Positions 2 through 44,554 of a stretch of DNA of 64,000 nt are shown piece after piece. Made by a program: the position numbers and the translations under genes. Under the pieces are notes generated by a model. That model was not told where the DNA came from and ran no database searches. It saw nothing but the letters and a program-made list of their open reading frames with translations. Origin of the DNA: Vicinamibacterales bacterium (GTDB taxonomy: Bacteria; Acidobacteriota; Vicinamibacteria; Vicinamibacterales; UBA2999); the NCBI GenBank assembly GCA_050185275.1, contig JBFWZN010000005.1, forward strand, positions 202,507-266,506, given 5' to 3'. Position 1 is the stretch's first letter; the number at the start of each line of letters is the position of its first letter.

Positions 2-778
2 CGGGTTCTGGTCACCCGTCCGCGCGAGCAGGCGGGCCCGCTGGTGGATCGGCTCGTTGCGCTGGGGGCCGACGCCGTGGAGGCGCCGATGATCCGGATC
101 GAGCCGCCCGAGGATGCGGCGCCACTGCGGGCCGCGGCGGCGCAGGCCTCCGGTTTCGACTGGATCGTGTTCTCGAGTCGGAACGCCGTCGCGTCGTTCA
201 TGGACGCGTTGCTCGGGGAAGGCCGCGACCTGCGCGCCCTGGCCGGCCCCCGGCTATGCGTCGTGGGCACGGGCACGGCCGAGGCCCTCGTCTCGTACGG
301 CATACGGCCGGACCTCCTCCCACGGGTGTTCACCGCAGAAGGCATCGTGGCCGCCATGCTCGAGACCGGTCCCATGGCGGCCGCACGGGTCTTGATCCCG
401 CACGCGAACATCGGCCGCGAGGTGGTGGGCGACGCCCTGCGCCTCGCGGGTGCCGACGTGCTGGACGTCGTGGCGTACCGGACGGTCGAAGAGGAGGGCC
501 AGACGGCGGGGCACCCGGATGTGTATCGCCTGCTCCTGGATCGCCAGATCGACGTGGTCACCTTCACGAGCCCGTCAGCGGTGCGCAGCTTCGTGCGCAG
601 CATCGGTGTCGAACAGGCAGCCGACCTGCTCCAGCAGGTGGCGGTGGCGAGCATCGGCCCCGTGACGACGCACGCAGCCCGGGAGCTCGGCCTCACGGTC
701 GCGATCCAGCCCTCGACCTACTCGGTGCCCGCGCTGGTGGACGCGATCGCCGCGCATTTCGCACGACCGACGCCCTGA
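2..778 (+). CDS. hemD: Uroporphyrinogen-III synthase domain, 5'-truncated by the window edge (possibly the C-terminal half of a CobA-HemD fusion)
   Basis: Frame is open from base 2: [38 protein letters not shown] motifs; lies upstream of hemB/hemL. Confidence 0.9.
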
Positions 779-33081: not shown

Positions 33082-34059
33082 ATGCGCACGCTCCGGATCG
33101 GCACCTCGGGCTGGAACTACCCGACCGGCCGAGGCACCTGGAACGGCCTGTTCTACCCGCCCACCCGGTCGAAGCGGGACGGCACGCGCGGTTTCGACGA
33201 ACTCGCCTACTACGCGCAGCACTTTGACACCGTGGAAGTGAACGCCACGTTCTACGGCCAGCCCCAGCCGGAGGTGACCCGCGGCTGGGCGATGCGCACG
33301 CCGCCCGGATTCGAATTCAGCGTGAAGCTGTACCAGAAGTTCACGCACCCGAAGATGTTCCGCGACGCGGCGCTGCGACGGGCTCCCGGCAACGAGGGGG
33401 CGCTGCTCGAACTCCTGGCCCAGGTGACGCCCTCCGACATCGACGAGTTCAGGGCCGGCATTGCGCCGCTCGCGGAGGCCGGGAAGCTCGGGCCGGTGCT
33501 GGCGCAGTTTCCGCCCAGCTTCCACAGCCAGCAGGTCTCGCGCGACTATCTCGCGGCCCTGCTGGGAGCGCTGCACGACTACCCCGTGGCCGTGGAGCTG
33601 CGTCACCGGAGCTGGAGCGACGACATGCCGGGGACGCTGGCGCTGCTCGGCAGCCACGGCGCGGCGCTCGTCCAGATCGACGAGCCGAGGTTCCGGTTCT
33701 CCATCCGCCAGAATCAGTTGCCGAACGTGACGTCCTTCCACTACATGCGGCTGCACGGCCGCAATGCGGCCCAGTGGTGGACGCACGACAAGGCCGAGGA
33801 CCGGTACAACTACCTCTACTCGGCGGACGAACTGCAGGAGTTTGCCGACGTGGCGGGGGCGGCGAAGGCCCTCGTGAAGAAGGCGTACCTGTACACGAAC
33901 AACCACTTCGCGTCCAAGTCGGTGGTCAACGCCCTGATGCTCAAAGCGCAGCTGGGCGAGCCGATCGAAGGCGCCTACCCCGCCGCGCTCGTGGAGCGGT
34001 ATCCGGAGATTGCCGGGCTGGTGGTCACCGAGCCGGTTCGCGCACGGTCACCCGCCTGA
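33082..34059 (+). CDS. DUF72 (YecE-like) protein
   Basis: [41 protein letters not shown]. Confidence 0.9.
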
Positions 34060-34615
34060 TCACGTCCGTCTCCTCGAGCATCCGCACGACGTCGAGGCCA
34101 CTCGTCACCTGGCCGAACACGGTGTAATCGCCGTCGAGTCGCGGCGCGGGCGCCAGCATGATGTACATCTGGCTGTCTCCCTGCTTCACGTCGCCGGGAT
34201 GCGCCATCGCCACCGCCCCCAGCTTGTGGGTGCGCAGCTTGCTGAACTCGCCCACGCCAATCGGGCGCCCGCTGCCGGCGCCCAGGCCGCGTCCCCAGAG
34301 ATCCCGCTTGGTCATGTCGCGCGTCTGCGGATCCCCGAACTGCACCACGAACCCCTTTTCCACCCGGTGCACGCGGAGACCGTTGTAGAAGCGGCGGTTG
34401 GCGAGCGTCGTGATGTGGGCGACGGTCTTCGGGGCTTCGTTCGGGTACAGCTCGATCTCGAACGTGCCCTTGACCGTCTCCACGACGAGCACCGGCCCCG
34501 CCGGGCCTGCGGCACGGGCGGCCTGGCCGGCGCGGGCCTGAGCCTCGAGCGCCGCTGGTGCGCCTGCCAGGAGCAGCGCGGCGAGCACGACCGCCATCCG
34601 GAACGTACGCCTCAT
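34025..34615 (-). CDS. Exported cyclophilin-type peptidyl-prolyl isomerase
   Basis: APKTV, FYNG, HRV..GFVVQFGDP, AMA, YTVFGQV; signal peptide. Confidence 0.9.
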   Translation of the reverse strand: MRRTFRMAVVLAALLLAGAPAALEAQARAGQAARAAGPAGPVLVVETVKGTFEIELYPNEAPKTVAHITTLANRRFYNGLRVHRVEKGFVVQFGDPQTRDMTKRDLWGRGLGAGSGRPIGVGEFSKLRTHKLGAVAMAHPGDVKQGDSQMYIMLAPAPRLDGDYTVFGQVTSGLDVVRMLEETDVIRRVTVREPAR

Positions 34616-35406
34616 CGTGCGTCCTCCTGCCGCGCGCGTGGCGCAGCGGTTCTGGGCCTGCCGACCCGGGTGACCCCAATTCTTGGACAATCCCGTGCCA
34701 CGGCGCAATCCCCGCACCGCGGATGCACGGGCCGGCACACGTGCTGTCCCCACGTCACGAGGTACAGGTTCACGTTGGCCCACCAGCGACGGTCGATGGC
34801 CCGGTAGAGCGCCTGCTCGGTCTCCTCTGGCGTCCGGGTCCGCACCCAGCCGAGGCGGTTGGCGATGCGGTGCACGTGTGTGTCCACACAGATGTGGTTG
34901 GCGCTGCGGAAGGCGAGGATCATCACGAGGTTGGCCGTCTTGCGGCCGACGCCCGGCAGCGTGACCATGTCCTCGAGCGTATCGGGCACGGTGCCGCCGA
35001 ACCGCTCGACGAGCGCGTCGCAGCAGTCCTTCACGTAGCGCGCCTTGTTGCGGTAGAAGCTCACCGGGTAGATGAGCGCCTCGATCTCCTTCACGCTCAG
35101 ACGACTCATGGCACGTGGGGTCCGCGCGCGACGGAACAGGCGCAGCGAGGCGGCGTGCGTCGTGGCGTCCTGGGTGCGCGCCGACAGCAGCGTGGCAATG
35201 AGGACCTGAAACGGATCCTCGGCCTGGGCGTCCGAGATCTTCTCGATCGCGGGCAGCTCGAGACCTTCGATCTTCCGGGCCAGCGTCGTCAGCACGCGCC
35301 TGACGAGAGGGGCGGGCGGACGCCGCGGCGAGGAGGAGGAGGCGGGCGATGAAGCGGACGACGAGCCCGTGGCAGCCGATAGCCGCGTGCGTCCGCTCGT
35401 GGTCAT
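34612..35406 (-). CDS. nth: Endonuclease III
   Basis: LLSARTQD, LPGVGRKTAN, VDTHV, C-x6-C-x2-C-x5-C Fe-S motif. Confidence 0.92.
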   Translation of the reverse strand: MTTSGRTRLSAATGSSSASSPASSSSPRRPPAPLVRRVLTTLARKIEGLELPAIEKISDAQAEDPFQVLIATLLSARTQDATTHAASLRLFRRARTPRAMSRLSVKEIEALIYPVSFYRNKARYVKDCCDALVERFGGTVPDTLEDMVTLPGVGRKTANLVMILAFRSANHICVDTHVHRIANRLGWVRTRTPEETEQALYRAIDRRWWANVNLYLVTWGQHVCRPVHPRCGDCAVARDCPRIGVTRVGRPRTAAPRARQEDAR

Positions 35407-36353
35407 GGCACGGGGGTGGGCGCGGGGGCGCCTCCCAGCACGGCCAGGACGTTGCGCACGGCGAGCTCCGACATGGCGGTGCGGGTCTCGACCGTCGCGC
35501 TGCCCAGGTGCGGCAGCACGAGCACGTTGTCGAGGGCCAGCAGGCCGGGTGTGACGGCCGGCTCGCGCTCGAACACATCGAGCGCGGCTCCCGCGATGAT
35601 GCCGCGTTCGAGCGCCCAGACGAGGGCCGCCTCGTCCACCACCGGGCCACGCGACGTGTTCACCAGATAGGCGCTCCGCTTCATGCGGGCGAGCGCCGTC
35701 TGGTCGATGAGATGCGTGGTCTCCGGCGTGAGCGGCACGTGCAGGGACACGACGTCCGAGGTGGCGAGCAGCCGCTCGAGCGGCAGGGAGACGCCTCCAG
35801 GCACCTCGCGACCGTCGCGCGCCGCGAACGCCACGCGCATGCCGAAGGCGGGCGCGACGGCAGCCACCGCCCGACCGATGCGCCCGGCGCCGACGATCCC
35901 GAGCTGGCGGCCGTGCACCTCCGTGCCGAGCAGCTGGTCGAAGGCCCAGCCCGTCCAGGCGCCCCGACGGACCAGCCGTTCGCCTTCGCCCATGCGTCGC
36001 GTGATCCCCAGGATGAGCGCCCAGGTGAGCGTGGCCGTCGCCCCGGTGAGGACATCGGGGGTATGGGTCACCACGATCCCCCGTGCCCTGGCCGCCGCCA
36101 CGTCGATGTTGTTGTAGCCGACGGCAACGGTGGACACGACGCGGAGCCGTGGCGCGGCATCGAGAAGCCGGCGGTCGATCTGATCGGTGAGCATGCAGAC
36201 GAGCCCGTCGTGCTTCGCGATGCGGGTACGCAGCGCGTCGGGGCTGAGCGTGCCGCCGGGCGGGCACTCGACGTCGCACTGCGCCTCGAGGGCGACCATC
36301 GCGGAGGATGGCAGGCGACGGGTGATCAGGACCGAGGGTCTCGAGGCGCTCAA
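35403..36353 (-). CDS. D-2-hydroxyacid dehydrogenase (glyoxylate/hydroxypyruvate reductase-like)
   Basis: VGYNNID, GAGRIG, SLHVPL, NTSRG, LDVFEREP, PHLGSAT; TTG start overlaps the upstream stop. Confidence 0.92.
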   Translation of the reverse strand: MSASRPSVLITRRLPSSAMVALEAQCDVECPPGGTLSPDALRTRIAKHDGLVCMLTDQIDRRLLDAAPRLRVVSTVAVGYNNIDVAAARARGIVVTHTPDVLTGATATLTWALILGITRRMGEGERLVRRGAWTGWAFDQLLGTEVHGRQLGIVGAGRIGRAVAAVAPAFGMRVAFAARDGREVPGGVSLPLERLLATSDVVSLHVPLTPETTHLIDQTALARMKRSAYLVNTSRGPVVDEAALVWALERGIIAGAALDVFEREPAVTPGLLALDNVLVLPHLGSATVETRTAMSELAVRNVLAVLGGAPAPTPVP

Positions 36354-36625
36354 TGTCCGTAGGCGGTGCAGAAACCGCAGTGGGTGCAGGGCACCTCGGG
36401 CTCGACGATGCACTCGCCGTCCCCGTCGGTGCCTGTGACGAGCGTGAGCGTGGCGTGGCTGACGTGTCCGGACACCGTCACCGTGGCCGACGCTGCCGCC
36501 GGCGCCATCGCCGCGCCGCGGGGCGACGGGGCGGCCGTCGCGAGGGGCGCATCGGGAGCCGCGTGCGCGCCCGAGCGCCTCGCGATGGCTTCCCGCACGA
36601 GCGCCCGCAACTGGTCGTCGTTCAC
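36350..36625 (-). CDS. Small protein with N-terminal encapsulation peptide and C-terminal 4-Cys motif (91 aa)
   Basis: MNDDQLRALVREAIARR amphipathic helix, Ala/Pro linker, CIVEPEVPCTHCGFCTAYGH; 4-nt overlaps at both ends. Confidence 0.75.
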   Translation of the reverse strand: MNDDQLRALVREAIARRSGAHAAPDAPLATAAPSPRGAAMAPAAASATVTVSGHVSHATLTLVTGTDGDGECIVEPEVPCTHCGFCTAYGH

Positions 36626-36990
36626 GATGGTCCTCGCGTCTCTGGGCGGGACGGCGTCCCGGCGGACCCCTCCGCCCCGGCGCGCACGCCGCTCCCGCGG
36701 CGCCCGACGCTGGTGTCGTCCTCGATCACGTCGAGTTCGTCCACGATGCCGATGACGGCGGCATCCACGGGCGCGCCCTTCCGGCCAAGCGCCTCGCCCG
36801 CAGCGCGGCCCTCGATGACGATGACCACGCGCTCGTGGACACCGGCGCCCACGGCGTCGACGGCCAGGAGGGGCACGCCCCGGGGCCGGTCGTCGAGCGT
36901 GACCGGCTGCACGAGCAGCAGCTTCGCGCCCTCGAACTTGGGGTGCTTGCGGGTGGCGACGACGGTGCCGACGACGCGCGCAATCTGCAT
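36622..36990 (-). CDS. BMC vertex protein (EutN/CcmL, BMC-P) with C-terminal extension
   Basis: MQIARVVGTVVATRK, AVDAVGAG, PVDAAVIGIVD. Confidence 0.93.
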   Translation of the reverse strand: MQIARVVGTVVATRKHPKFEGAKLLLVQPVTLDDRPRGVPLLAVDAVGAGVHERVVIVIEGRAAGEALGRKGAPVDAAVIGIVDELDVIEDDTSVGRRGSGVRAGAEGSAGTPSRPETRGPS

Positions 36991-37256
36991 CAGCCGAGGG
37001 ACCAGTGATCCACGATGCCCACGACGCCGGCGTCGGCCGGCACCTCCACGGGGGAGAACGGGAAGCTGGCTTCCTTGCCCCGCACGAAGAACACCACCTC
37101 ACCCACGCCGGCGCCCACGGCATCCACGGCCACCAGCGTGCGACCCACCGACGCCCCGCCCGCATCGATGGGCTGGAGCACGAGGAGTGTCACGCCGCCG
37201 AGCGCGGTGTTCTTGACGGTGGAGACGACGTCGCCGACGACCCTGGCGAGTTGCAC
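36990..37256 (-). CDS. BMC vertex protein (EutN/CcmL, BMC-P)
   Basis: ARVVGDVVSTVK, AVDAVGAGVGE, GKEA, DAGVVGIVD. Confidence 0.93.
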   Translation of the reverse strand: MQLARVVGDVVSTVKNTALGGVTLLVLQPIDAGGASVGRTLVAVDAVGAGVGEVVFFVRGKEASFPFSPVEVPADAGVVGIVDHWSLG

Positions 37257-37275
37257 GGGTATGGTCCGGAAGGGG

Positions 37276-37551
37276 TCAATCCCCGGCAGAGACCTCGACG
37301 GCGTCCACGATGCCCACGACGGCCGCGTCCACCGGACAATCCTTCAACCCCGACGCCATGCGCGCCGAGCTTCCGCTGACGATGAGCACCGTCTCGCCGA
37401 CGCCGGCATCGACGGTATCAACGGCCACCAGGTAGTTGCCCTCGCTCTTGCCGTGCGGATCGGTCGCCCGGGCCACCAGCAGCTTGTGGCTCACGAGCCG
37501 CGGATCCTTCCGCGTGGCGACGACGGTGCCGACGATGCGGGCAACGATCAT
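37276..37551 (-). CDS. BMC vertex protein (EutN/CcmL, BMC-P)
   Basis: VGTVVATRKD, AVDTVDAGVGE, GSSAR, PVDAAVVGIVD. Confidence 0.94.
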   Translation of the reverse strand: MIVARIVGTVVATRKDPRLVSHKLLVARATDPHGKSEGNYLVAVDTVDAGVGETVLIVSGSSARMASGLKDCPVDAAVVGIVDAVEVSAGD

Positions 37552-37566
37552 CCGGCCACCGGATGG

Positions 37567-37860
37567 CTACTTGCCGCCCGAGCCGGACTTGCCGATGGGA
37601 AGCGCGTCCTCGAGGTTGGCGTGCGGTCTCGGGATGACGTGCACCGATACCAGCTCGCCGACGCGGCGGGCGGCCGCGGCCCCTGCGTCGGTGGCCGCCT
37701 TCACCGCGGCGACGTCGCCGCGGACGATGGCCGTCACGTACCCGGCCCCGATCTTCTCCCAGCCGACCAGCGTGACCTTCGCGGCCTTCACCATGGCATC
37801 GGCCGCCTCGATCATGGCAACCAGGCCCTTGGTCTCGACCATTCCCAACGCCTCACCCAT
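37567..37860 (-). CDS. BMC hexameric shell protein (EutM/PduA-like, BMC-H)
   Basis: [40 protein letters not shown]. Confidence 0.97.
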
Positions 37861-37889
37861 GCTGTCCTCGTCTCATCCTCGCGCCGTCG

Positions 37890-38747
37890 TCATCGGAGGT
37901 TCCTCACCGCATCCACGATGAGTTCCGTGAGTTCGCCGTATGTTAGCCGAATTTCCTCGTCCCTGCTCGAGCCCGCGGCACGGCCCGACGCATCGGGCAC
38001 GAGCCGCTCGGTGGCCGAGTGCGGAGCCTCGATCACCTGGCACTCTGCCTGGTCGGTGCTGTCGGCGGCCGCAGGGTCCGCGCACATCGGCGCGGGCGAC
38101 GCGATGCCGTACATGCCCCGCAGGCCCTGGAGCCGGCCCACTTCGTCCCTCGACAACAGATTCTCGCCGCCGAGGACCCGCGCCACGAGGCTGATGCGGG
38201 CGAAGTGCTCGATTGTCTCCATCTTGTAGTAGGCGGACATCACCGAGCGGCAGCAGGTGATGGCGCCGTGATTGGCCAGCAGGAGGCCGTCGTGGGCCTT
38301 GATGTACTGCCGGACGGCGGCCGGCAGTTCGGCCGTGGACGGGGTGCCGTATGCCGCGATGGGGATGCTGCCAAGGGTGGTGACGACCTCCGCCAGCACG
38401 GCGCGGGTGAGCGGGATGCCGGCCACGGCGAATCCGGTCGCCACCGGAGGGTGAGCGTGCACCACCGCGTTCACGTCGGGACGGTTCCGGTACACCTCCA
38501 GGTGCATCGGCAACTCCGTCGAGGCCTCCCGCTCGCCGGCGAGCTTGCGGCCCTCCAGGTCCACGACGACCATCATGTCGGGGGTCATGAACCCCTTCGA
38601 GACGCTGCGGGGCGTGGTGATGAACCGCGTCTCGTCGAGCCTGACGCTGATGTTGCCGTCGTTGGAGGCGACGTACGCCCGCTCATAGAGGCGACGGCCC
38701 ACCTCGACGATGTCGGCTCGGATCTGTTCTTCGGCGCGGGTGCTCAT
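37890..38747 (-). CDS. Class II aldolase (FucA-like) with C-terminal encapsulation peptide
   Basis: DGNISVR, TELPMH, VVHAHP, NHGA; ends LTYGELTELIVDAVRNLR. Confidence 0.9.
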   Translation of the reverse strand: MSTRAEEQIRADIVEVGRRLYERAYVASNDGNISVRLDETRFITTPRSVSKGFMTPDMMVVVDLEGRKLAGEREASTELPMHLEVYRNRPDVNAVVHAHPPVATGFAVAGIPLTRAVLAEVVTTLGSIPIAAYGTPSTAELPAAVRQYIKAHDGLLLANHGAITCCRSVMSAYYKMETIEHFARISLVARVLGGENLLSRDEVGRLQGLRGMYGIASPAPMCADPAAADSTDQAECQVIEAPHSATERLVPDASGRAAGSSRDEEIRLTYGELTELIVDAVRNLR

Positions 38748-38763
38748 GGTCGGCGTGGGCGGC

Positions 38764-39030
38764 TCAGGCCCTCTGCTGCTTCAGGAACTCGCTGCGACAG
38801 GTCTCGGAACAGAAATGGTGCGCACGCCCGTCCGCCACGACCTGCAGGGCGCTCGACGGCGCCACGTGGGTGCCGCACACCGGGTCCCGCACGAGTCTCA
38901 CGGCCTGCGGGGTGCGGCGGCTCGAGACCCTGGGCCGGCCGCCCGCGGCCTCGATGACACTGTCGATCACCCGCCAGAAGGCGCGGGCAATCAGGATGAG
39001 CAGGATGCCGAGCAGGACGTACCGCAGCAT
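38764..39030 (-). CDS. Membrane-anchored YHS/TRASH domain protein
   Basis: N-terminal hydrophobic helix; RDPVCG...HFCSETC. Confidence 0.85.
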   Translation of the reverse strand: MLRYVLLGILLILIARAFWRVIDSVIEAAGGRPRVSSRRTPQAVRLVRDPVCGTHVAPSSALQVVADGRAHHFCSETCRSEFLKQQRA

Positions 39031-39033
39031 CCC

Positions 39034-39645
39034 TCACGGCTCCTGGGTCGTCGGCGTGTCTCCAGCATGGGCCGCCGCCACGCCGTCGAGGGCGCGCTGT
39101 GCGGCCTGGCCCTCGGGCGACGTGGGGGCAATCTCGACGACCCGCTGCCACGACTGGGCGGCGGAGGTGAGGTCCTGCTTGCCGAAGGCCCGCACGATGC
39201 CCTGGTTGAGGAGCGTCTTCGTGTGGTTCGGATCGAGGCGCAGCGACTGCTCGAACTGCTGGAGCGCCTCGTCGGGCCTGTTGGTGTAGTAGTAGGCGAC
39301 GCCCAGGTCGGTGCTGGCGTTGACGTCGGTGGGATCGATCGCGAGGGCCTGCTCGTACCACGACACCGCTTCGTCGAAGCGTTCCGCATCGAAGTAGGCA
39401 TTGGCCAGCTGGACGCGGGCGCCTGCGTTGGCAGGATCGCTCTGCGCCACGGTCATGAGGGCCTGCACCCGGGCTTCGTCGAGGGGTGCCGGCCCCTGCT
39501 GCGCCGCGGCAGGGGCGGCCGCCGGGGCCTGGGCCAGGGCAGCTGGCGACGCAGACCCCGCGCCCTGCTGCACGGCACCCACCCAGCCGAGGATGATCCC
39601 GAAGAACATCCCGGCTACGGCAAAGGCAATCGACTCCGCTTTCAT
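39034..39645 (-). CDS. Membrane-anchored TPR protein
   Basis: N-terminal TM, Ala/Pro linker, TPR repeats (LANAYFD; LGVAYY; WQRVVEIAP). Confidence 0.85.
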   Translation of the reverse strand: MKAESIAFAVAGMFFGIILGWVGAVQQGAGSASPAALAQAPAAAPAAAQQGPAPLDEARVQALMTVAQSDPANAGARVQLANAYFDAERFDEAVSWYEQALAIDPTDVNASTDLGVAYYYTNRPDEALQQFEQSLRLDPNHTKTLLNQGIVRAFGKQDLTSAAQSWQRVVEIAPTSPEGQAAQRALDGVAAAHAGDTPTTQEP

Positions 39646-39653
39646 CGCCCTGG

Positions 39654-39682
39654 ATCTTATTGCAGACGGGGTCGGACGGGAA
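39654..39682 (-). promoter_or_regulatory. Putative promoter at the head of the BMC operon
   Basis: Minus strand TTCCCG-17 nt-TAAGAT, 8 nt before ATG 39645. Confidence 0.4.
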
Positions 39683-39760
39683 CCACCGGCCAGGAGCGGT
39701 CAGGTCTTCGGTGACGGGCGCGCACCGGGGAGCGGGCGCCCGGAGCGGGGGATCTCGCGC

Positions 39761-40498
39761 TCAGGGCCCCGACAACGCGTCGAGGAACGCCCGCACGCTG
39801 GCGGAAAGGCCCACGAAGAGGGCCCGGCTGATCAGGGCGTGGCCAATCGACACCTCGGCCAGGTGCGGCAACCGTCGAAAGACCGCGAGGTTGTCCACAT
39901 CGAGATCGTGCCCGGCGTTGATCGCCAGGCCCAGGCGATCGGCGCACTCGGCGGCCCGCGCATAGTCCGCGAAGGATGCCTCGGCGGCCTGGGGTCCGCG
40001 TTCGAAGGCGCGCGCAAACGGTTCGGTGTACAGCTCGACACGCTCCGCCCCGGTATCGGCCGCCCACCGGATGGCCGGCTCGACCGGGTCCACGAACAGG
40101 CTGACGCGGATGCCCACGGCGTGCAGCCGGCGGACCACGGCGGCCACACCGGCGCCGGACTCGGGTGTCCACCCGGCCTGACTCGTGATTTCTCCGGGCA
40201 GCACCGGCACGAGGGTGCACTGGTGGGGCACCACCTCCAGCACCAGATCCAGGAGATCCGGCCGCGGATCGCCTTCCACGTTGAACTCGACGGGATGCGC
40301 CCGGGTCGCCAGCAGGGCGGCGAGTTGCCGCACGTCCGACGGCGTGATGTGCCTGGCATCGGCCCGCGGGTGCACGGTGATGCCGTGGGCACCGGCATCC
40401 AGGCAGACGCGGGCCGCCTCGAGCACCGAGGGCATGGCGCCGCCCCGCGAGTTGCGAATGGTCGCCACCTTGTTGACGTTGACCGAGAGCGCAATCAT
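39761..40498 (-). CDS. pdxJ: Pyridoxine 5'-phosphate synthase
   Basis: LSVNVNKVATIRN, GITVHPR.D.RHI, ELYT, NAGHDL, EVSIGH. Confidence 0.94.
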   Translation of the reverse strand: MIALSVNVNKVATIRNSRGGAMPSVLEAARVCLDAGAHGITVHPRADARHITPSDVRQLAALLATRAHPVEFNVEGDPRPDLLDLVLEVVPHQCTLVPVLPGEITSQAGWTPESGAGVAAVVRRLHAVGIRVSLFVDPVEPAIRWAADTGAERVELYTEPFARAFERGPQAAEASFADYARAAECADRLGLAINAGHDLDVDNLAVFRRLPHLAEVSIGHALISRALFVGLSASVRAFLDALSGP

Positions 40499-40556
40499 GG
40501 GCGCCGTCCGCGCGTCACCCGACCCCGACCGCGTGGCCGATGCAGGCACCGCACCG

Positions 40557-41903
40557 TTAGACCGGGGCCGCGGCGTGCTGCCGGACCGCGTCCAGAATCT
40601 CTTCGCCCCATTGCCGGATCTGCTCCTGGTCTTCGCCCTCGAGCATCACCCGCAGCAGCGGCTCGGTGCCCGAGTAGCGGACCAGGAGGCGCCCCTTGCC
40701 GGCCAGCCGCGACTGCACCGACTGCATGACGGCGGCAATCGAGGGCACCGAGTCGAGGTCGAACCGCTGGGCCACGCGAAGGTTCAACAGCACCTGCGGA
40801 TAGGTGGTGAGTTCCGACGCCAGGTCCCCGAGTTCACGGCCCGTGGCGGCCATCGTCGCCAGCACGTGGAGCGCGGTGGCGAGGCCATCGCCCGTGAAGA
40901 GGTACTCGCCGAAAATCACGTGTCCGGACTGCTCGCCGCCAATCGCGAGGTCACGCTTCAGCATCTCCTCCATCACGTACTTGTCGCCGACGGCCGTGCG
41001 CACCATGTCGATGCCGGCGTCCCGCAGCGCGAGCTCGAGCCCGAGATTGCTCATGACCGTCGCCACGACACCGTTGCCACGAAGCCGGCCCTGACGCTTC
41101 ATGTCCTTGGCGCACATGAGCATCACCGCGTCGCCGTCCACGGTCCGGCCGGCAGCGTCCACGAACAGGGCACGGTCGCCGTCGCCGTCGAACGCGATGC
41201 CGAGCCGGTAGCCGCCCGCCACCACCGCGTCGGCCAGCCGGCCGAGCGAGGTGGAGCCGCACCCCAGATTGATGTTGCGCCCATCCGGCTCGCAGCCGAT
41301 GAACCGGGCGTCGCAGCCGAGTGTCTCGAAGAGCCTCGGCGCGACGGTCGTGGTGGCACCGTTGGCGCAGTCCACCACCACGCGCCAGCCCGCCACGCTG
41401 ACGCCGGCCGGCAGCACGCCGCCCAGGTGCGCGAGGTAGTCGTCACGATAGTCGCGGGTCTCGATGACCGCAGGCCCGCCGTCGGGCGCCGACCAGGAGA
41501 GATCCGCCATGATCGCCTCGACGCGCTGCTCGTGCATCTCGGTGAACTTCTCACCGGTGCCCGAGAACACCTTGATGCCGTTGTCCTCGAAGGGGTTGTG
41601 CGACGCGGAGATGACGACGCCGGCGGTGAAGCCGTGGCGCGGGGTGAGGAAGGCGATGGCGGGGGTCGGGATGACGCCGGCCGACACCAGGCGCCCGCCC
41701 TGACTGGCCATCCCGTGTGCCAGTTCACGCTCGATCCAGTCGCCCGACTCGCGGGTATCGCGGCCGGCCAGGAACACGGGCGAGCCTTCCGCCGGTCGCA
41801 GGGCGCGGGACAGCGCACCTCCCAGCCGCCGCACCGTCGCCACATCGAGTGGGGCCACACCCGCCCGTCCCCGCACACCGTCCGTACCAAAGAAACGACT
41901 CAT
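40557..41903 (-). CDS. glmM: Phosphoglucosamine mutase
   Basis: FGTDGVRG, SASHNP, FDGDGDR, GGEQSGH, RYSGTEP. Confidence 0.96.
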   Translation of the reverse strand: MSRFFGTDGVRGRAGVAPLDVATVRRLGGALSRALRPAEGSPVFLAGRDTRESGDWIERELAHGMASQGGRLVSAGVIPTPAIAFLTPRHGFTAGVVISASHNPFEDNGIKVFSGTGEKFTEMHEQRVEAIMADLSWSAPDGGPAVIETRDYRDDYLAHLGGVLPAGVSVAGWRVVVDCANGATTTVAPRLFETLGCDARFIGCEPDGRNINLGCGSTSLGRLADAVVAGGYRLGIAFDGDGDRALFVDAAGRTVDGDAVMLMCAKDMKRQGRLRGNGVVATVMSNLGLELALRDAGIDMVRTAVGDKYVMEEMLKRDLAIGGEQSGHVIFGEYLFTGDGLATALHVLATMAATGRELGDLASELTTYPQVLLNLRVAQRFDLDSVPSIAAVMQSVQSRLAGKGRLLVRYSGTEPLLRVMLEGEDQEQIRQWGEEILDAVRQHAAAPV

Positions 41904-42068
41904 GACTCTCCTATCGGTTGCGTCTGCCCGGGTATGAGGGCGTCGGCGCGGCCATCCGGCGACGCGCCCGGCGCCGCACGCGGCTCAGGGCCCGATCCAC
42001 GACTCTCGTGTACCTGCCCCCGGGACCTGGGTGTGGCGACCAGACCCGTGCGCGGTCCGGCTCCAGAC

Positions 42069-42827
42069 TCAGAAGCCGGGCCGGCGCGAGGCATCGCCGG
42101 GCGGGGCGCCACCGGCCGCCCCCCGGCCGCTGGTGGCGTCCGCTCCCGCGTCGTCCTTCGTGTCCTTCGCGTCAGGCGGCTCTGGAGCGGTCGGGACGAT
42201 GACCACGCTCACGCGGGCGGCCTGCGGGGTGACCAGCCTGACGCTGGGATCCGTCACCCCCACGGTTGCCGTATCCAGCACCGTGCTCGTCGCCCCGGCG
42301 ACCGACACCGGCTCGGTGATGGCTTCGGTCACCTCGCGCACCGCCGACGCCGGACCCGTGATGGCGACCATCGCGGGCTCCACGACGAGCGACACCCGCA
42401 TGAAGCCGGTGGCCGGTTCTCCCTCCACCTGGGGCACGACGGGCACGACCTTGTTCTCGGAGAGTTCGAAGACGAGGGGCACCGTCGCCGGCATCAACTG
42501 GACCACCTCGACCCCGAACGGCGTCCGGACATCAGCGCCTGTCAGGTGGAACAGGCGACGGCCCGGCCGCGCCGCCTGCAGATCGAGCACCGCCACGAGC
42601 GCGCCTGGTGCCATGTCGGCCAGCACGGCCGAGCCGCCCCGGACACGCACCTCAACGACATCGGGCGTGTCGCCCACCACCTCGAGTTGCGGGGGCAGGT
42701 TGATCAGTTCCACGGGAATGCGCAGCGCGCGTTCGACACTCTGGTCACTCGACACGGTGAGCCACAGCAGCGCCGCGAGGGCGACGGACACGACCTTCAG
42801 CCCCAGATAGGGAATGCGGATGGTCAT
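42069..42827 (-). CDS. cdaR: YbbR-domain protein CdaR
   Basis: KVVSVALAALLW TM; two YbbR-like repeats (VEVRVRG; VAITGP); between cdaA and glmM. Confidence 0.85.
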   Translation of the reverse strand: MTIRIPYLGLKVVSVALAALLWLTVSSDQSVERALRIPVELINLPPQLEVVGDTPDVVEVRVRGGSAVLADMAPGALVAVLDLQAARPGRRLFHLTGADVRTPFGVEVVQLMPATVPLVFELSENKVVPVVPQVEGEPATGFMRVSLVVEPAMVAITGPASAVREVTEAITEPVSVAGATSTVLDTATVGVTDPSVRLVTPQAARVSVVIVPTAPEPPDAKDTKDDAGADATSGRGAAGGAPPGDASRRPGF

Positions 42828-43648
42828 CGGCCCCCTCCGTCGTCAGCGTCGTCGGCGGGCACCACACGGGCGGGCGCGTTGCGCCGCAGCAAAGCGCGCA
42901 ACCGCTCACGGAGGACATCCGCCGACAGCCCGCGCTCGAGCGAGCCGCCGAGCGCCAGGGAGATGACACCGTTCTCCTCGGACACGACGACGGCCACCGC
43001 GTCGTTCTCCTCGGTGAGGCCAAGGGCGGCGCGGTGCCGCGTGCCGAGTTCGCGGCTCACCAGCGGGTTCACCGACAGCGGCAGGAAGCAGGCGGCCGCC
43101 GCCACGCGATCGGCCTGGATGATCACGGCGCCGTCATGCAGGGGCGACTCCCGCTGGAAGATGCTGAACAGCAGGTCGTAGGTCACGACCGCGTCGAGCG
43201 GGATGCCGCCCTCGATGTAGTTGCGCAACCCGATCTGCCGCTCGATCACGATGATGGCGCCGATCCGCCGGTGGGACAGCGCGGAGGCGGCGGCGACGAC
43301 CTCCTCGATCGCCTCCTTGGTGCTCGTCTGCCGCGCGAAGTACTTCGAGAACGGCGCACGACCGAAGTGCGCGAGCGCCCGACGGATGTCGGCCTGGAAG
43401 AGGACGATCACCGCGAACACGACGTAGCCCGCCATGTTGCGGATCACCCAGTTCACGGTCTCGAGTTCCAGCCAGCGTGACAGGAAGAAGAGGGCGAGCA
43501 GGAACGCGCCACTGAGCGCCATCTGGGCCGCACGGGTGCCCCGGATGAGCAGCAGCAGTTCGTAGATGAGGAAGGAGACCAGCGCGACGTCGAGCAGGTC
43601 CCACCATCCCACTGCTGGCCAGTTGAGGAGATCGGTGAGCAGATTCAT
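42824..43648 (-). CDS. cdaA: Diadenylate cyclase CdaA
   Basis: Three TM helices; LHDGAV, GTRHRAA, VSEE. Confidence 0.93.
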   Translation of the reverse strand: MNLLTDLLNWPAVGWWDLLDVALVSFLIYELLLLIRGTRAAQMALSGAFLLALFFLSRWLELETVNWVIRNMAGYVVFAVIVLFQADIRRALAHFGRAPFSKYFARQTSTKEAIEEVVAAASALSHRRIGAIIVIERQIGLRNYIEGGIPLDAVVTYDLLFSIFQRESPLHDGAVIIQADRVAAAACFLPLSVNPLVSRELGTRHRAALGLTEENDAVAVVVSEENGVISLALGGSLERGLSADVLRERLRALLRRNAPARVVPADDADDGGGR

Positions 43649-43684
43649 GTCCCGGCACGGCCCCGGCGAGGGACCGGGAGAGCG

Positions 43685-44554
43685 TCAGTCGCGATGATAT
43701 CTCCGAATCTCGTCCATCACGCGTACGACCTGCGCCAGCTCCCGCACCGCATGCACCCGCACCACGTGCGCGCCGGCCATCACCGCCGCCGACACGGCAG
43801 CGGCCGTGGCCCAGTCCCGCTCGGCGGGGGGTACCGAGGGGCCGATGGCGCGCGTGAGGAACGACTTGCGCGAGGGCCCCACCACGACCGGCAGGCCGAG
43901 CTCTCCGAACTCGTGCAGCCGGGCCAGCGCCTCGTAGCTGTGCGGGGCCTCCTTGGCGAAGCCGAGCCCGGGGTCCACCAGCAGGCTGTCCCTGGGCACG
44001 CCGGCGTCGGTGGCGAACACGATGCTCTCGCGGAGCTCGTCGAGCACCTCGTCCACCACGTCGAGATAGGTGGCCTGCTGGTACATGTCGCGCGACCGCC
44101 CCCGCGTGTGCATGAGGACCAGCCCGCCGCCGGAGCGGGCCACCACCTCGGCGAGGCGAGGCTCGTAGCGGAGCCCACTGATGTCGTTGACGAGCGTGGC
44201 GCCGACGCCGAACGCCGCCTCGGCCACCCGCGCCTTGTAGGTGTCGACGGAAATCGGCACCGTCACCCGCGACGCGAGGCCCGCGATCACGGGGAGCACG
44301 CGCTCGAGCTCCACGGCCGGATCGAGCGGACGGGCACCAGGTCGCGTGGACTCTCCGCCGACGTCGATGATGTCGGCGCCCTCGGCCTCCATGCGCACGC
44401 CGGCCTCCACGGCCGCGGCCGCGTCGAGCAGGCGCCCACCGTCGGAGAACGAGTCGGGGGTGACGTTGATCGCCCCCATCACGAGCGTGCGCTGGCCCGT
44501 CTCGAGGCGGCGGCCACCGGGGAGCCTGACTGAGAATCGTCGTCGTGGGTACAT
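43685..44554 (-). CDS. folP: Dihydropteroate synthase
   Basis: NVTPDSFSDGG, DVGGESTRPG, DPGLGFAK, SRKSF, RVH. Confidence 0.96.
   Translation of the reverse strand: MYPRRRFSVRLPGGRRLETGQRTLVMGAINVTPDSFSDGGRLLDAAAAVEAGVRMEAEGADIIDVGGESTRPGARPLDPAVELERVLPVIAGLASRVTVPISVDTYKARVAEAAFGVGATLVNDISGLRYEPRLAEVVARSGGGLVLMHTRGRSRDMYQQATYLDVVDEVLDELRESIVFATDAGVPRDSLLVDPGLGFAKEAPHSYEALARLHEFGELGLPVVVGPSRKSFLTRAIGPSVPPAERDWATAAAVSAAVMAGAHVVRVHAVRELAQVVRVMDEIRRYHRD

Follow-up and report, generated by a model that had tools for sequence, protein, structure and literature searches.

The microcompartment operon described here is very probably the main locus for a metabolosome of the ACI type in a Vicinamibacterales (Acidobacteriota) bacterium. 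The kind has already been catalogued, and the locus is an intact copy of it that adds nothing to the catalogue. A Pfam search of the window, the whole 64,000-nucleotide stretch analysed, located 11 genes in one string spanning 34025..39682, all on the minus strand and each where an earlier sequence-only reading had placed it. The co-oriented inventory given by that reading, from the TPR protein to the PPIase, is borne out by Pfam support:

39034..39645, minus: TPR protein with a single membrane pass, first in the string (TPR_2, 7e-20)
38764..39030, minus: small membrane protein carrying a metal-binding domain of the YHS/TRASH type (PF04945, 5.8e-9)
37890..38747, minus: class II (metal-dependent) ketose-1-phosphate aldolase, the signature enzyme (PF00596, 1.3e-47)
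37893..37958, minus: amphipathic helix at the C-terminus of the aldolase, spanning residues 264-285, a predicted encapsulation peptide (EP) from its conserved terminal helix
37567..37860, minus: BMC-H hexamer shell protein (PF00936, 2.8e-30)
37276..37551, minus: BMC-P pentamer 1, P1 (PF03319, 1.2e-30)
36990..37256, minus: BMC-P pentamer 2, P2 (PF03319, 3.5e-26)
36622..36990, minus: BMC-P pentamer 3, P3, with a C-terminal tail of ~36 residues (PF03319, 3.3e-29)
36350..36625, minus: small Cys protein of 91 aa with no known family (Pfam and NCBIfam both blank)
35403..36353, minus: D-2-hydroxyacid dehydrogenase of the glyoxylate/hydroxypyruvate reductase group (PF02826, 8e-56; PF00389)
34612..35406, minus: endonuclease III, nth (HhH-GPD, 3.6e-25)
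34025..34615, minus: cyclophilin-type PPIase (PF00160, 1e-33)

At five junctions through the distal half, the stop codon of one gene overlaps the start codon of the next, as had been read earlier: P2 and P3 share one base, and the overlaps are GTGA at P3/Cys, TTGA at Cys/dehydrogenase, and ATGA at both dehydrogenase/nth and nth/PPIase. A gap of 115 bases separates the TPR start at 39645 from the PdxJ gene, whose low-coordinate 3' end lies at 39761. While a candidate promoter had been proposed at the head of the string, a consensus scan of 33900-39900, sensitive to canonical promoters only, returned no sigma-70-like promoter and no intrinsic terminator. The span holds no gene for an aldehyde dehydrogenase (AldDH), a phosphotransacylase (PTAC) or BMC-T.

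The sequence-only reading had mentioned an Acidobacteria-specific BMC type with no assigned function, which corresponds to ACI as presented in the available part of the survey by Sutter, Melnicki, Schulz, Woyke and Kerfeld (2021, Nat Commun 12:3809; PMC8217296). According to that part, ACI loci carry an aldolase with a C-terminal EP, BMC-H, three BMC-P, a 2-hydroxyacid dehydrogenase and unknown proteins, and occur in Acidobacteria, mainly of subdivisions 4 and 6; the AldDH is encoded in a satellite locus and, in phylogenetic terms, is close only to that of MIC3 (PMC8217296). In the present case, we found an acidobacterial host, PF00596 with a C-terminal helix, PF00389/PF02826, a BMC-P triplet with BMC-H, and a satellite PF00171 gene. 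Gene families and their order, the triplet, at least one BMC-H, the EP helix on the aldolase, the hydroxyacid dehydrogenase and the satellite AldDH are all shared with the available ACI description, as is a host of the subdivision 6 lineage (assigned for the window by nearest relatives), and no testable feature differed from that part of the source. The BMC of Haliangium ochraceum (HO) is also alike, as far as its available description goes, in having a BMC-P triplet, an aldolase and no assigned function; however, HO has BMC-T and occurs in Myxobacteria, whereas the genome studied here yielded no tandem BMC domain. We found no experimental study of any ACI locus in the literature.

To describe conservation, we used the best 80 of 530 confirmed relatives and counted only loci with enough flanking DNA (71 evaluable upstream and 60 downstream). 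Seventy-six of these 80 loci belong to MAGs named as Acidobacteria, Acidobacteriota or Vicinamibacter-type, the other four carrying different bin labels, and the nearest relatives reach 98% aldolase identity. Downstream of the aldolase, BMC-H, P1 and P3 are present in all 60 evaluable loci and P2 in 58, followed by the dehydrogenase in 48, the Cys gene in 43 and the PPIase in 31. On the upstream side, the YHS gene was detected in 65/71 loci and the TPR gene in 62/71; in nine distant Acidobacteriota loci, the former was not detected and the latter appeared in two. The YHS gene also persists beside the aldolase in divergent loci without the TPR and PdxJ genes, and the TPR protein is only tentatively linked with the organelle. 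In soil, Acidobacteria rank with the most abundant bacteria, and BMC-P genes, mostly as a triplet, are present in 135 of 251 sampled Acidobacteriota genomes; the role of the ACI organelle is therefore a real question.

The genome-wide absences given here refer to a 100%-complete genome. The earlier statement that no acylating AldDH is present is true of the window but fails for the genome, because contig C1 encodes a 612-aa CoA-acylating AldDH (PF00171), 24 bases behind a satellite BMC-H gene. This pairing recurs in 14 of 15 related loci with BMC-H directly upstream, and the enzyme is present in 31/31 relatives, 29 of them at 67% identity or more, with 23 matches extending to its C-terminal module. 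Its closest relatives of solved structure are 3k9d (5.6e-142) and 5j78, the latter an acetylating enzyme, and TIGR02518, the model for acetylating acetaldehyde dehydrogenase, gave 583 bits, short of its cut-off of 620. The sequence-only reading had also suggested looking for satellite shell, AldDH and PTAC genes in the genome: the BMC-H and AldDH pair was found, whereas PTAC was not, with no match to either PduL (PF06130) or Pta (PF01515), so that its claim of no PduL/PTAC holds genome-wide. Its claim of no BMC-T stands as well, as no tandem BMC-T domains were found and the genome contains three single-domain PF00936 matches, one in the locus and two elsewhere. The genome has no BMC-P genes besides the three in the window.

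By family assignment, the shell would be built from the BMC-H and three BMC-P proteins of the locus together with the two BMC-H proteins encoded elsewhere; the locus BMC-H scored 145 bits with the NCBIfam EutM model (cut-off 133). From their terminal helices, we infer that the aldolase, the Cys4 protein and the AldDH of contig C1 are encapsulated in the lumen. The aldolase consists of a catalytic domain and an extension of about 100 residues, in which a variable linker with a conserved Cys pair precedes the terminal helix, and this helix is kept in Vicinamibacterales and in the nine distant Acidobacteriota loci. The AldDH bears a C-terminal targeting-type extension. The Cys protein has a targeting-type helix at its N-terminus; a disordered linker then leads to C-x8-C-x2-C-x2-C, a C-terminal motif with Gly-His as its last residues. 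Its AlphaFold model shows a helix at residues 3-20 with pLDDT of about 90 and no defined fold in the remainder. Orthologs numbered 55 by tblastn; the four Cys are invariant across 48 aligned rows, comprising the window protein and 47 orthologs, and the ESM Atlas neighbours are Acidobacteriota hypotheticals only. On the tentative DHAP-shunt-like reading set out below, this conserved Cys4 mini-protein would act in the lumen, to which it is targeted, as a metal or iron-sulfur factor and would represent a new family.

Judging from the enzyme families, the aldolase would split a ketose-1-phosphate to give DHAP plus a short aldehyde, and the AldDH would trap the aldehyde as acyl-CoA, generating NADH. 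Since no phosphotransacylase was found in the genome, the acyl-CoA would not be made into acyl-phosphate and would have to exit the shell or be used directly. Against the metabolosome model, it gives no account of how NAD+ and CoA would be recycled with neither alcohol dehydrogenase nor PTAC; a single Fe-ADH gene is present in the genome, far from the BMC loci.

The specificity of the aldolase is not readable from similarity, because its closest solved relatives, fuculose-phosphate-aldolase-type chains, score nearly equally (DrdA-type 6btd, 2.9e-23; FucA 4c24, 1.5e-22) and none of the NCBIfam aldolase models reaches its cut-off. As a tentative lead, the substrate may be a 5-deoxy- or 5-methylthio-pentulose-1-phosphate supplied by MTA/purine nucleoside phosphorylase and MtnA, with the organelle carrying out the aldol cleavage in a DHAP-shunt-like pathway. 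In the cytosol, 5-deoxy- or 5-methylthio-ribulose-1-phosphate would be formed by MtnA together with MTA or purine nucleoside phosphorylase, the shell-enclosed aldolase would cleave it to release acetaldehyde or methylthioacetaldehyde, and the co-encapsulated AldDH would capture this aldehyde as acyl-CoA. The genome encodes MtnA on contig C6 (TIGR00512, 447 bits, cut-off 279) and MTA phosphorylase (MTAP) on contig C7 (TIGR01694, 317.7 bits, cut-off 275), while ARD (MtnD), RuBisCO-like protein (RLP) and MtnB were not found in it. The locus aldolase, the sole PF00596 gene of the genome, is the only known consumer family found for the MtnA product, which suggests such a role. In 13 of 16 related loci, the gene immediately upstream of MtnA codes for a purine nucleoside phosphorylase. 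Co-occurrence of MtnA with BMC genes lends no support, because MtnA is near-universal (248/251 Acidobacteriota genomes) in a sample where 116/251 lack BMC-P and 35/251 lack any PF00596 gene. In addition, salvage flux seems small for an organelle.

The available parts of the literature describe the DHAP shunt, or 5-deoxyribose disposal, as comprising MtnP or MtnK (MtnK together with Pfs), MtnA and Ald2/DrdA, an aldolase with specificity for 5-deoxy- or 5-methylthio-ribulose-1-phosphate (PMC6079011, PMC10986504), and the code 6btd, the best solved aldolase relative, occurs once in the DrdA paper as available. This genome shares with the shunt an MTA phosphorylase, MtnA and one class II aldolase of the FucA-like kind. 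The known operons are clustered, whereas here the three genes lie on separate contigs, the aldolase being on C5; the aldolase here also bears a targeting helix and is encoded within a shell operon, and the aldehyde, reduced in the shunt, would here be oxidised to acyl-CoA. We found no link between the DHAP shunt and a microcompartment in the literature. If the DHAP-shunt-like role is true, ACI would be a vertically inherited, housekeeping-type organelle and not a sugar-catabolic island, handling by-products of S-adenosylmethionine use or scavenged 5'-deoxynucleosides.

A PVM-like organelle for fucose or rhamnose, in which L-fuculose- or L-rhamnulose-1-phosphate is cleaved to DHAP and L-lactaldehyde and the satellite AldDH forms lactyl-CoA, is improbable. 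Solved fuculose-phosphate aldolases are among the top aldolase matches, and in both PVM and this genome an encapsulated class II aldolase making an aldehyde would be followed by an acylating AldDH. However, the PVM locus itself holds AldDH and PTAC, whereas here the AldDH lies outside the locus and PF06130, PF01515, the fucose isomerase FucI (PF02952) and the rhamnose isomerase RhaA (PF06134) all gave 0 matches genome-wide, these being the two isomerase families searched. The sequence-only reading had held that satellite AldDH and PTAC genes would mark a standard PVM type; the former was found and the latter was not. Furthermore, the AldDH is nearest to acetaldehyde-type enzymes, the D-specific hydroxyacid dehydrogenase would not, from what is known of its family, act on L-lactate, and the locus has housekeeping genes as its neighbours, among which no sugar kinase, isomerase or transporter occurs. 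In favour of sugar use, a carbohydrate role was proposed for ACI on the pattern of PVM and GRM5, both of which have aldolases of the PF00596 family (PMC8217296, available part). The genome-wide inventory narrows the options and argues against fucose or rhamnose; it points to pentulose-1-phosphates of the MtnP/MtnA route as candidate substrates, which can be assayed cheaply with enzymes.

It is similarly unlikely that the organelle handles glycolaldehyde, with nucleoside ribose-1-phosphate converted to ribulose-1-phosphate and then to DHAP and glycolaldehyde, and the dehydrogenase performing the glycolate/glyoxylate step. MtnA does lie within a cluster of NupC, purine nucleoside phosphorylase and cytidine deaminase, and the best solved relatives of the dehydrogenase are glyoxylate reductases (6bii, 6.9e-80), with the NCBIfam glyoxylate reductase model at 316 bits, under its cut-off of 455. 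On the other hand, phosphopentomutase DeoB provides an ordinary ribose-1-phosphate route, and MtnA is not known to act on ribose-1-phosphate. A route via ribulose-1-phosphate aldolase has been described in haloarchaea (PMC9700705, as available in part), and the haloarchaeal model scored 100 bits on our aldolase, below its cut-off of 300. The dehydrogenase has no terminal targeting extension and adjoins the aldolase-shell module in 0/9 distant Acidobacteriota loci, so it is weakly supported as core cargo. For the same two reasons, and since the BMC-H and AldDH satellite pair with its C-terminal targeting-type extension is conserved across the order, the model of the sequence-only reading, in which aldol cleavage is coupled directly to 2-keto/2-hydroxy-acid redox by the adjacent dehydrogenase with no aldehyde-oxidising core, is very improbable, despite AldDH and PTAC missing from the window, the translational coupling of the dehydrogenase to the Cys gene and its position after the module in 48/60 related loci.

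Among the co-transcribed neighbours, namely the dehydrogenase, nth and the cyclophilin, the dehydrogenase alone might serve the pathway. The nth product scored 192 bits with TIGR01083, under the cut-off of 211.7; the gene, translationally coupled and with an ATGA overlap on each side, probably has no connection with the organelle. The PPIase has a signal-like hydrophobic N-terminus, as read from its translation, and is probably exported and likewise unrelated to the organelle.

The locus consists of eleven genes in one orientation at 34025-39645 on the minus strand of the window, in a region of about 70% G+C. Genes were picked by combining the ORF list, Pfam and NCBIfam scans and direct reading of the sequence, as follows.

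Gene 1, minus strand: membrane TPR protein
Gene 2, minus strand: small membrane YHS-domain protein
Gene 3, minus strand: class II aldolase
Gene 4, minus strand: bacterial microcompartment (BMC) shell protein BMC-H, single copy
Genes 5-7, minus strand: three BMC-P (BMC-P1 to BMC-P3)
Gene 8, minus strand: 91-aa protein with no family assigned (Cys4 protein)
Gene 9, minus strand: D-2-hydroxyacid dehydrogenase
Gene 10, minus strand: endonuclease III (nth)
Gene 11, minus strand: cyclophilin with a signal-like N-terminus

Stop and start codons overlap at every junction downstream of the start of the second BMC-P gene, where the Cys4 gene, overlapping the BMC-P3 stop, starts with GTG within GTGA, and the dehydrogenase gene starts with TTG within TTGA. 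This inventory, the gene order and the overlapping codons agree with the sequence-only reading. That reading had also placed a candidate promoter at the head of the operon, but our consensus scan of 33900-39900 found neither a sigma-70-type promoter nor an intrinsic terminator. BMC-P3 ends in a tail of about 36 residues (36622-36729) that is rich in Gly, Arg and Pro and is lacking from the other two BMC-P. In endonuclease III, an N-terminal extension rich in Ser, Pro and Arg, about 55 residues long, precedes the HhH-GPD domain (35245-35406). Upstream of the locus on the same strand, a run of housekeeping genes occupies 39761-44554, in which PdxJ was confirmed by Pfam, and GlmM-, YbbR-, CdaA- and FolP-like ORFs were assigned from reading their translations alone.

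In the accessible parts of PMC8217296 (Sutter et al. 2021), the ACI type of BMC is described as having 125 members, confined to Acidobacteria and mainly to subdivisions 4 and 6, and its loci as comprising a PF00596 aldolase that bears an encapsulation peptide at its C-terminus, a hydroxyacid dehydrogenase, a triplet of BMC-P, one or more BMC-H and a number of unknown proteins. All features open to checking against that text are present here, and the locus is an ordinary member of the ACI type, a kind already in print. Our literature search found no later experimental papers on this type. The new elements are the satellite shown in this genome, the anatomy of three putative targeting extensions, a genome-wide inventory of absent families and a DHAP-shunt lead for the ACI organelle.

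In the species-representative genome collection, 530 relatives of the aldolase were confirmed. Of the best 80, 76 come from named Acidobacteria or Vicinamibacter-type MAGs, and the remaining 4 bear other bin labels. Synteny among the related loci is strong. When downstream genes were scored in the 60 loci with at least 4.5 kb beyond the aldolase, BMC-H, BMC-P1 and BMC-P3 were each detected in 60/60, BMC-P2 in 58, the dehydrogenase and nth in 48 each and the cyclophilin in 31. The Cys protein was scored in 43 of the 60, a count to be read knowing that tblastn undercounts short divergent proteins and that a Cys-motif ortholog was visible by eye in some loci scored as negative. Upstream genes were scored in the 71 loci with at least 2 kb, giving YHS and PdxJ in 65 each and TPR in 62. 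We also fetched ten loci from other Acidobacteriota families and set one apart (L116). In all nine remaining distant loci, the aldolase, BMC-H and first BMC-P genes were adjacent, and the full BMC-P triplet was detected in seven. A TPR gene lay upstream in two (L108 and L113), and none of the nine yielded the dehydrogenase or the YHS protein. Flanks were scanned by Pfam in three of the nine (L108, L110 and L112), and all three had unrelated housekeeping genes there, e.g. QueA, FolD and CoaE. Of 251 sampled Acidobacteriota genomes, 135 have BMC-P genes, mostly as three copies, and so do all 24 from the window's class, its own genome counted; these tallies include the unpublished genome G170. 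Given the distant loci, the phylum tallies and these flanks, the aldolase-shell module looks old and vertically inherited, set in housekeeping surroundings rather than in a catabolic island. The locus set apart (G085:C5:15000-33000), from another order of the same class, represents a different BMC type: three BMC-P accompany five BMC-H-like genes, an aldehyde dehydrogenase (AldDH) is encoded within the locus, and a class II aldolase lies at a distance.

The genome as a whole spans 4.4 Mb in 19 contigs, is 100% complete on marker genes and gave three PF00936 and three PF03319 matches. On its contig C1, a 612-aa AldDH lies 24 bases downstream of a 91-aa BMC-H. Among solved structures, this AldDH is closest to 3k9d (5.6e-142), 5j78 (an acetylating enzyme) and the AldDH halves of AdhE proteins. 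Against the NCBIfam acetylating acetaldehyde dehydrogenase model it scored 583 bits, under the cut-off of 620. The AldDH was present in 31/31 related genomes (E <= 1e-50), at an identity of at least 67% in 29 of them, while G019 and G024 gave matches of 42-46% only; the match extended to residue 603 or further in 23 of the 31. BMC-H lay immediately upstream of the AldDH in 14 of 15 loci, L099 being the exception. The absence of an acylating AldDH claimed in the sequence-only reading is thus correct within the window but false of the organism, because the C1 satellite carries the BMC-H and AldDH pair. Two of the other absences it named extend to the whole genome, where neither a PduL-type PTAC (PF06130) nor Pta (PF01515) was found, and where no tandem BMC-T domain was found, every PF00936 match being single-domain.

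Three proteins carry extensions that are putative targeting signals. The aldolase continues for about 100 residues beyond its catalytic domain: a first segment contains two conserved Cys, a variable linker follows, and an amphipathic helix closes the chain. This helix is kept across the order and in the nine distant loci. The AldDH has a C-terminal extension of about 150-158 residues (L008:6375-6851, in the fetched AldDH locus), consisting of a conserved amphipathic helix, a Pro/Ala-rich linker and a terminal module of 46 residues, 11 of which, a Cys among them, are invariant in 14 sequences. The tail had no match in Pfam or the PDB. In the AlphaFold model of the Cys4 protein, an N-terminal helix at residues 3-20 (pLDDT ~90) is followed by a disordered linker, and the model as a whole has no defined fold (pTM 0.30). 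Its C-terminus bears a C-x8-C-x2-C-x2-C motif with Gly-His as the last residues, and all four Cys are invariant among 48 aligned sequences. The protein belongs to no family in Pfam or NCBIfam, and only Acidobacteriota hypotheticals neighbour it in the ESM Atlas. In two distant loci (L109 and L117), the third BMC-P is followed by a related small protein whose Cys spacing is identical. The dehydrogenase has no extension at either terminus.

The 46-residue AldDH module was considered as a portable targeting domain and rejected on the proteins that carry it and on its own genome. Its profile gave 656 matches at E <= 0.001 against 1.84 billion representatives. Pfam analysis of 20 of the 150 listed matches assigned AldDH to 3, no domain to 13 and foreign domains to 4, namely NAT, Macro, NDK and DUF2229 in the metagenome proteins P0004, P0025, P0070 and P0092. 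Since segments of the AldDH extension also occur in three of these four (8 sequences viewed), the foreign-domain proteins are probably chimeric contigs rather than fusions. Among 61,242 six-frame ORFs of its own genome, the module was found nowhere but in the AldDH (next best E 0.21). A likeness of the module to the EutQ N-terminus was considered and set aside.

For the aldolase substrate, similarity does not single out a compound, and the genome inventory is more telling. In alignments, the aldolase retains the residues that we take to be the metal-binding histidines and catalytic glutamate of FucA-type enzymes. Its best solved relative is 6btd (2.9e-23), near-equal to the pneumococcal fuculose-phosphate aldolase 4c24, and every score against the NCBIfam aldolase models fell under its cut-off. 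The code 6btd occurs in a paper solving the structure of DrdA, a 5-deoxyribulose-1-phosphate aldolase. As predicted from their families, the aldolase would cleave a ketose-1-phosphate, releasing DHAP and an aldehyde, which the satellite AldDH would convert with CoA and NAD+ to acyl-CoA and NADH. Because PTAC is absent, the acyl-CoA would stay unconverted to acyl-phosphate.

The accessible parts of PMC10986504 and PMC6079011 describe a DHAP shunt in which MtnP (or Pfs and MtnK), MtnA and the class II aldolase Ald2 yield DHAP and acetaldehyde or methylthioacetaldehyde. MTA phosphorylase (318 bits, cut-off 275) and MtnA (447 bits, cut-off 279) are present here, and the known consumers of the MtnA product are missing from the genome, with no ARD, no RuBisCO-like protein and no MtnB candidate, there being no second class II aldolase-family gene. 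The window aldolase is the only PF00596 gene of the genome, and a single such gene was seen in 17 of the 23 order genomes sampled at phylum level, its own included. For the third step, the encapsulated aldolase is the sole candidate here, and an acetaldehyde-type acylating dehydrogenase would be a sensible next enzyme. At C6:300147-304253 (loci L106 and L120), genes for a NupC transporter, purine nucleoside phosphorylase, cytidine deaminase, MtnA and TsaD are clustered; 13 of 16 related loci have the phosphorylase directly upstream of MtnA. We propose the shunt role of the organelle tentatively, since several points speak against it. MtnA occurs in 248 of 251 Acidobacteriota genomes (G170, G075 and G052 included), organelle present or not, so that finding the two together within the phylum is uninformative as support; 35 of the 251 (a tally with G170 and G075) have no PF00596 gene; the pathway genes are unclustered; and salvage flux seems small for an organelle. 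Our literature search found no papers linking the shunt with microcompartments.

A PVM-like organelle for fucose or rhamnose is unlikely, as neither fucose isomerase nor rhamnose isomerase families were found in the genome and PTAC is missing. We consider an organelle producing glycolaldehyde from ribulose-1-phosphate just as improbable; it would fit the glyoxylate-reductase-like dehydrogenase, but DeoB is present in the genome and the dehydrogenase is only loosely linked to the module. The AldDH-free aldolase/hydroxyacid chemistry of the sequence-only reading is contradicted by the conserved BMC-H and AldDH satellite, and we give it very little credence.

The Fe-ADH family is represented by one gene on contig C11, remote from the BMC loci, whose open frame of 377 residues leaves little space for an extension. 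A third BMC-H stands alone on contig C8 (C8:235838-236065; L007:7830-8099), between genes for a GNAT acetyltransferase and an FAD-dependent oxidoreductase, and its pore-region and edge motifs are unlike those of the other two.
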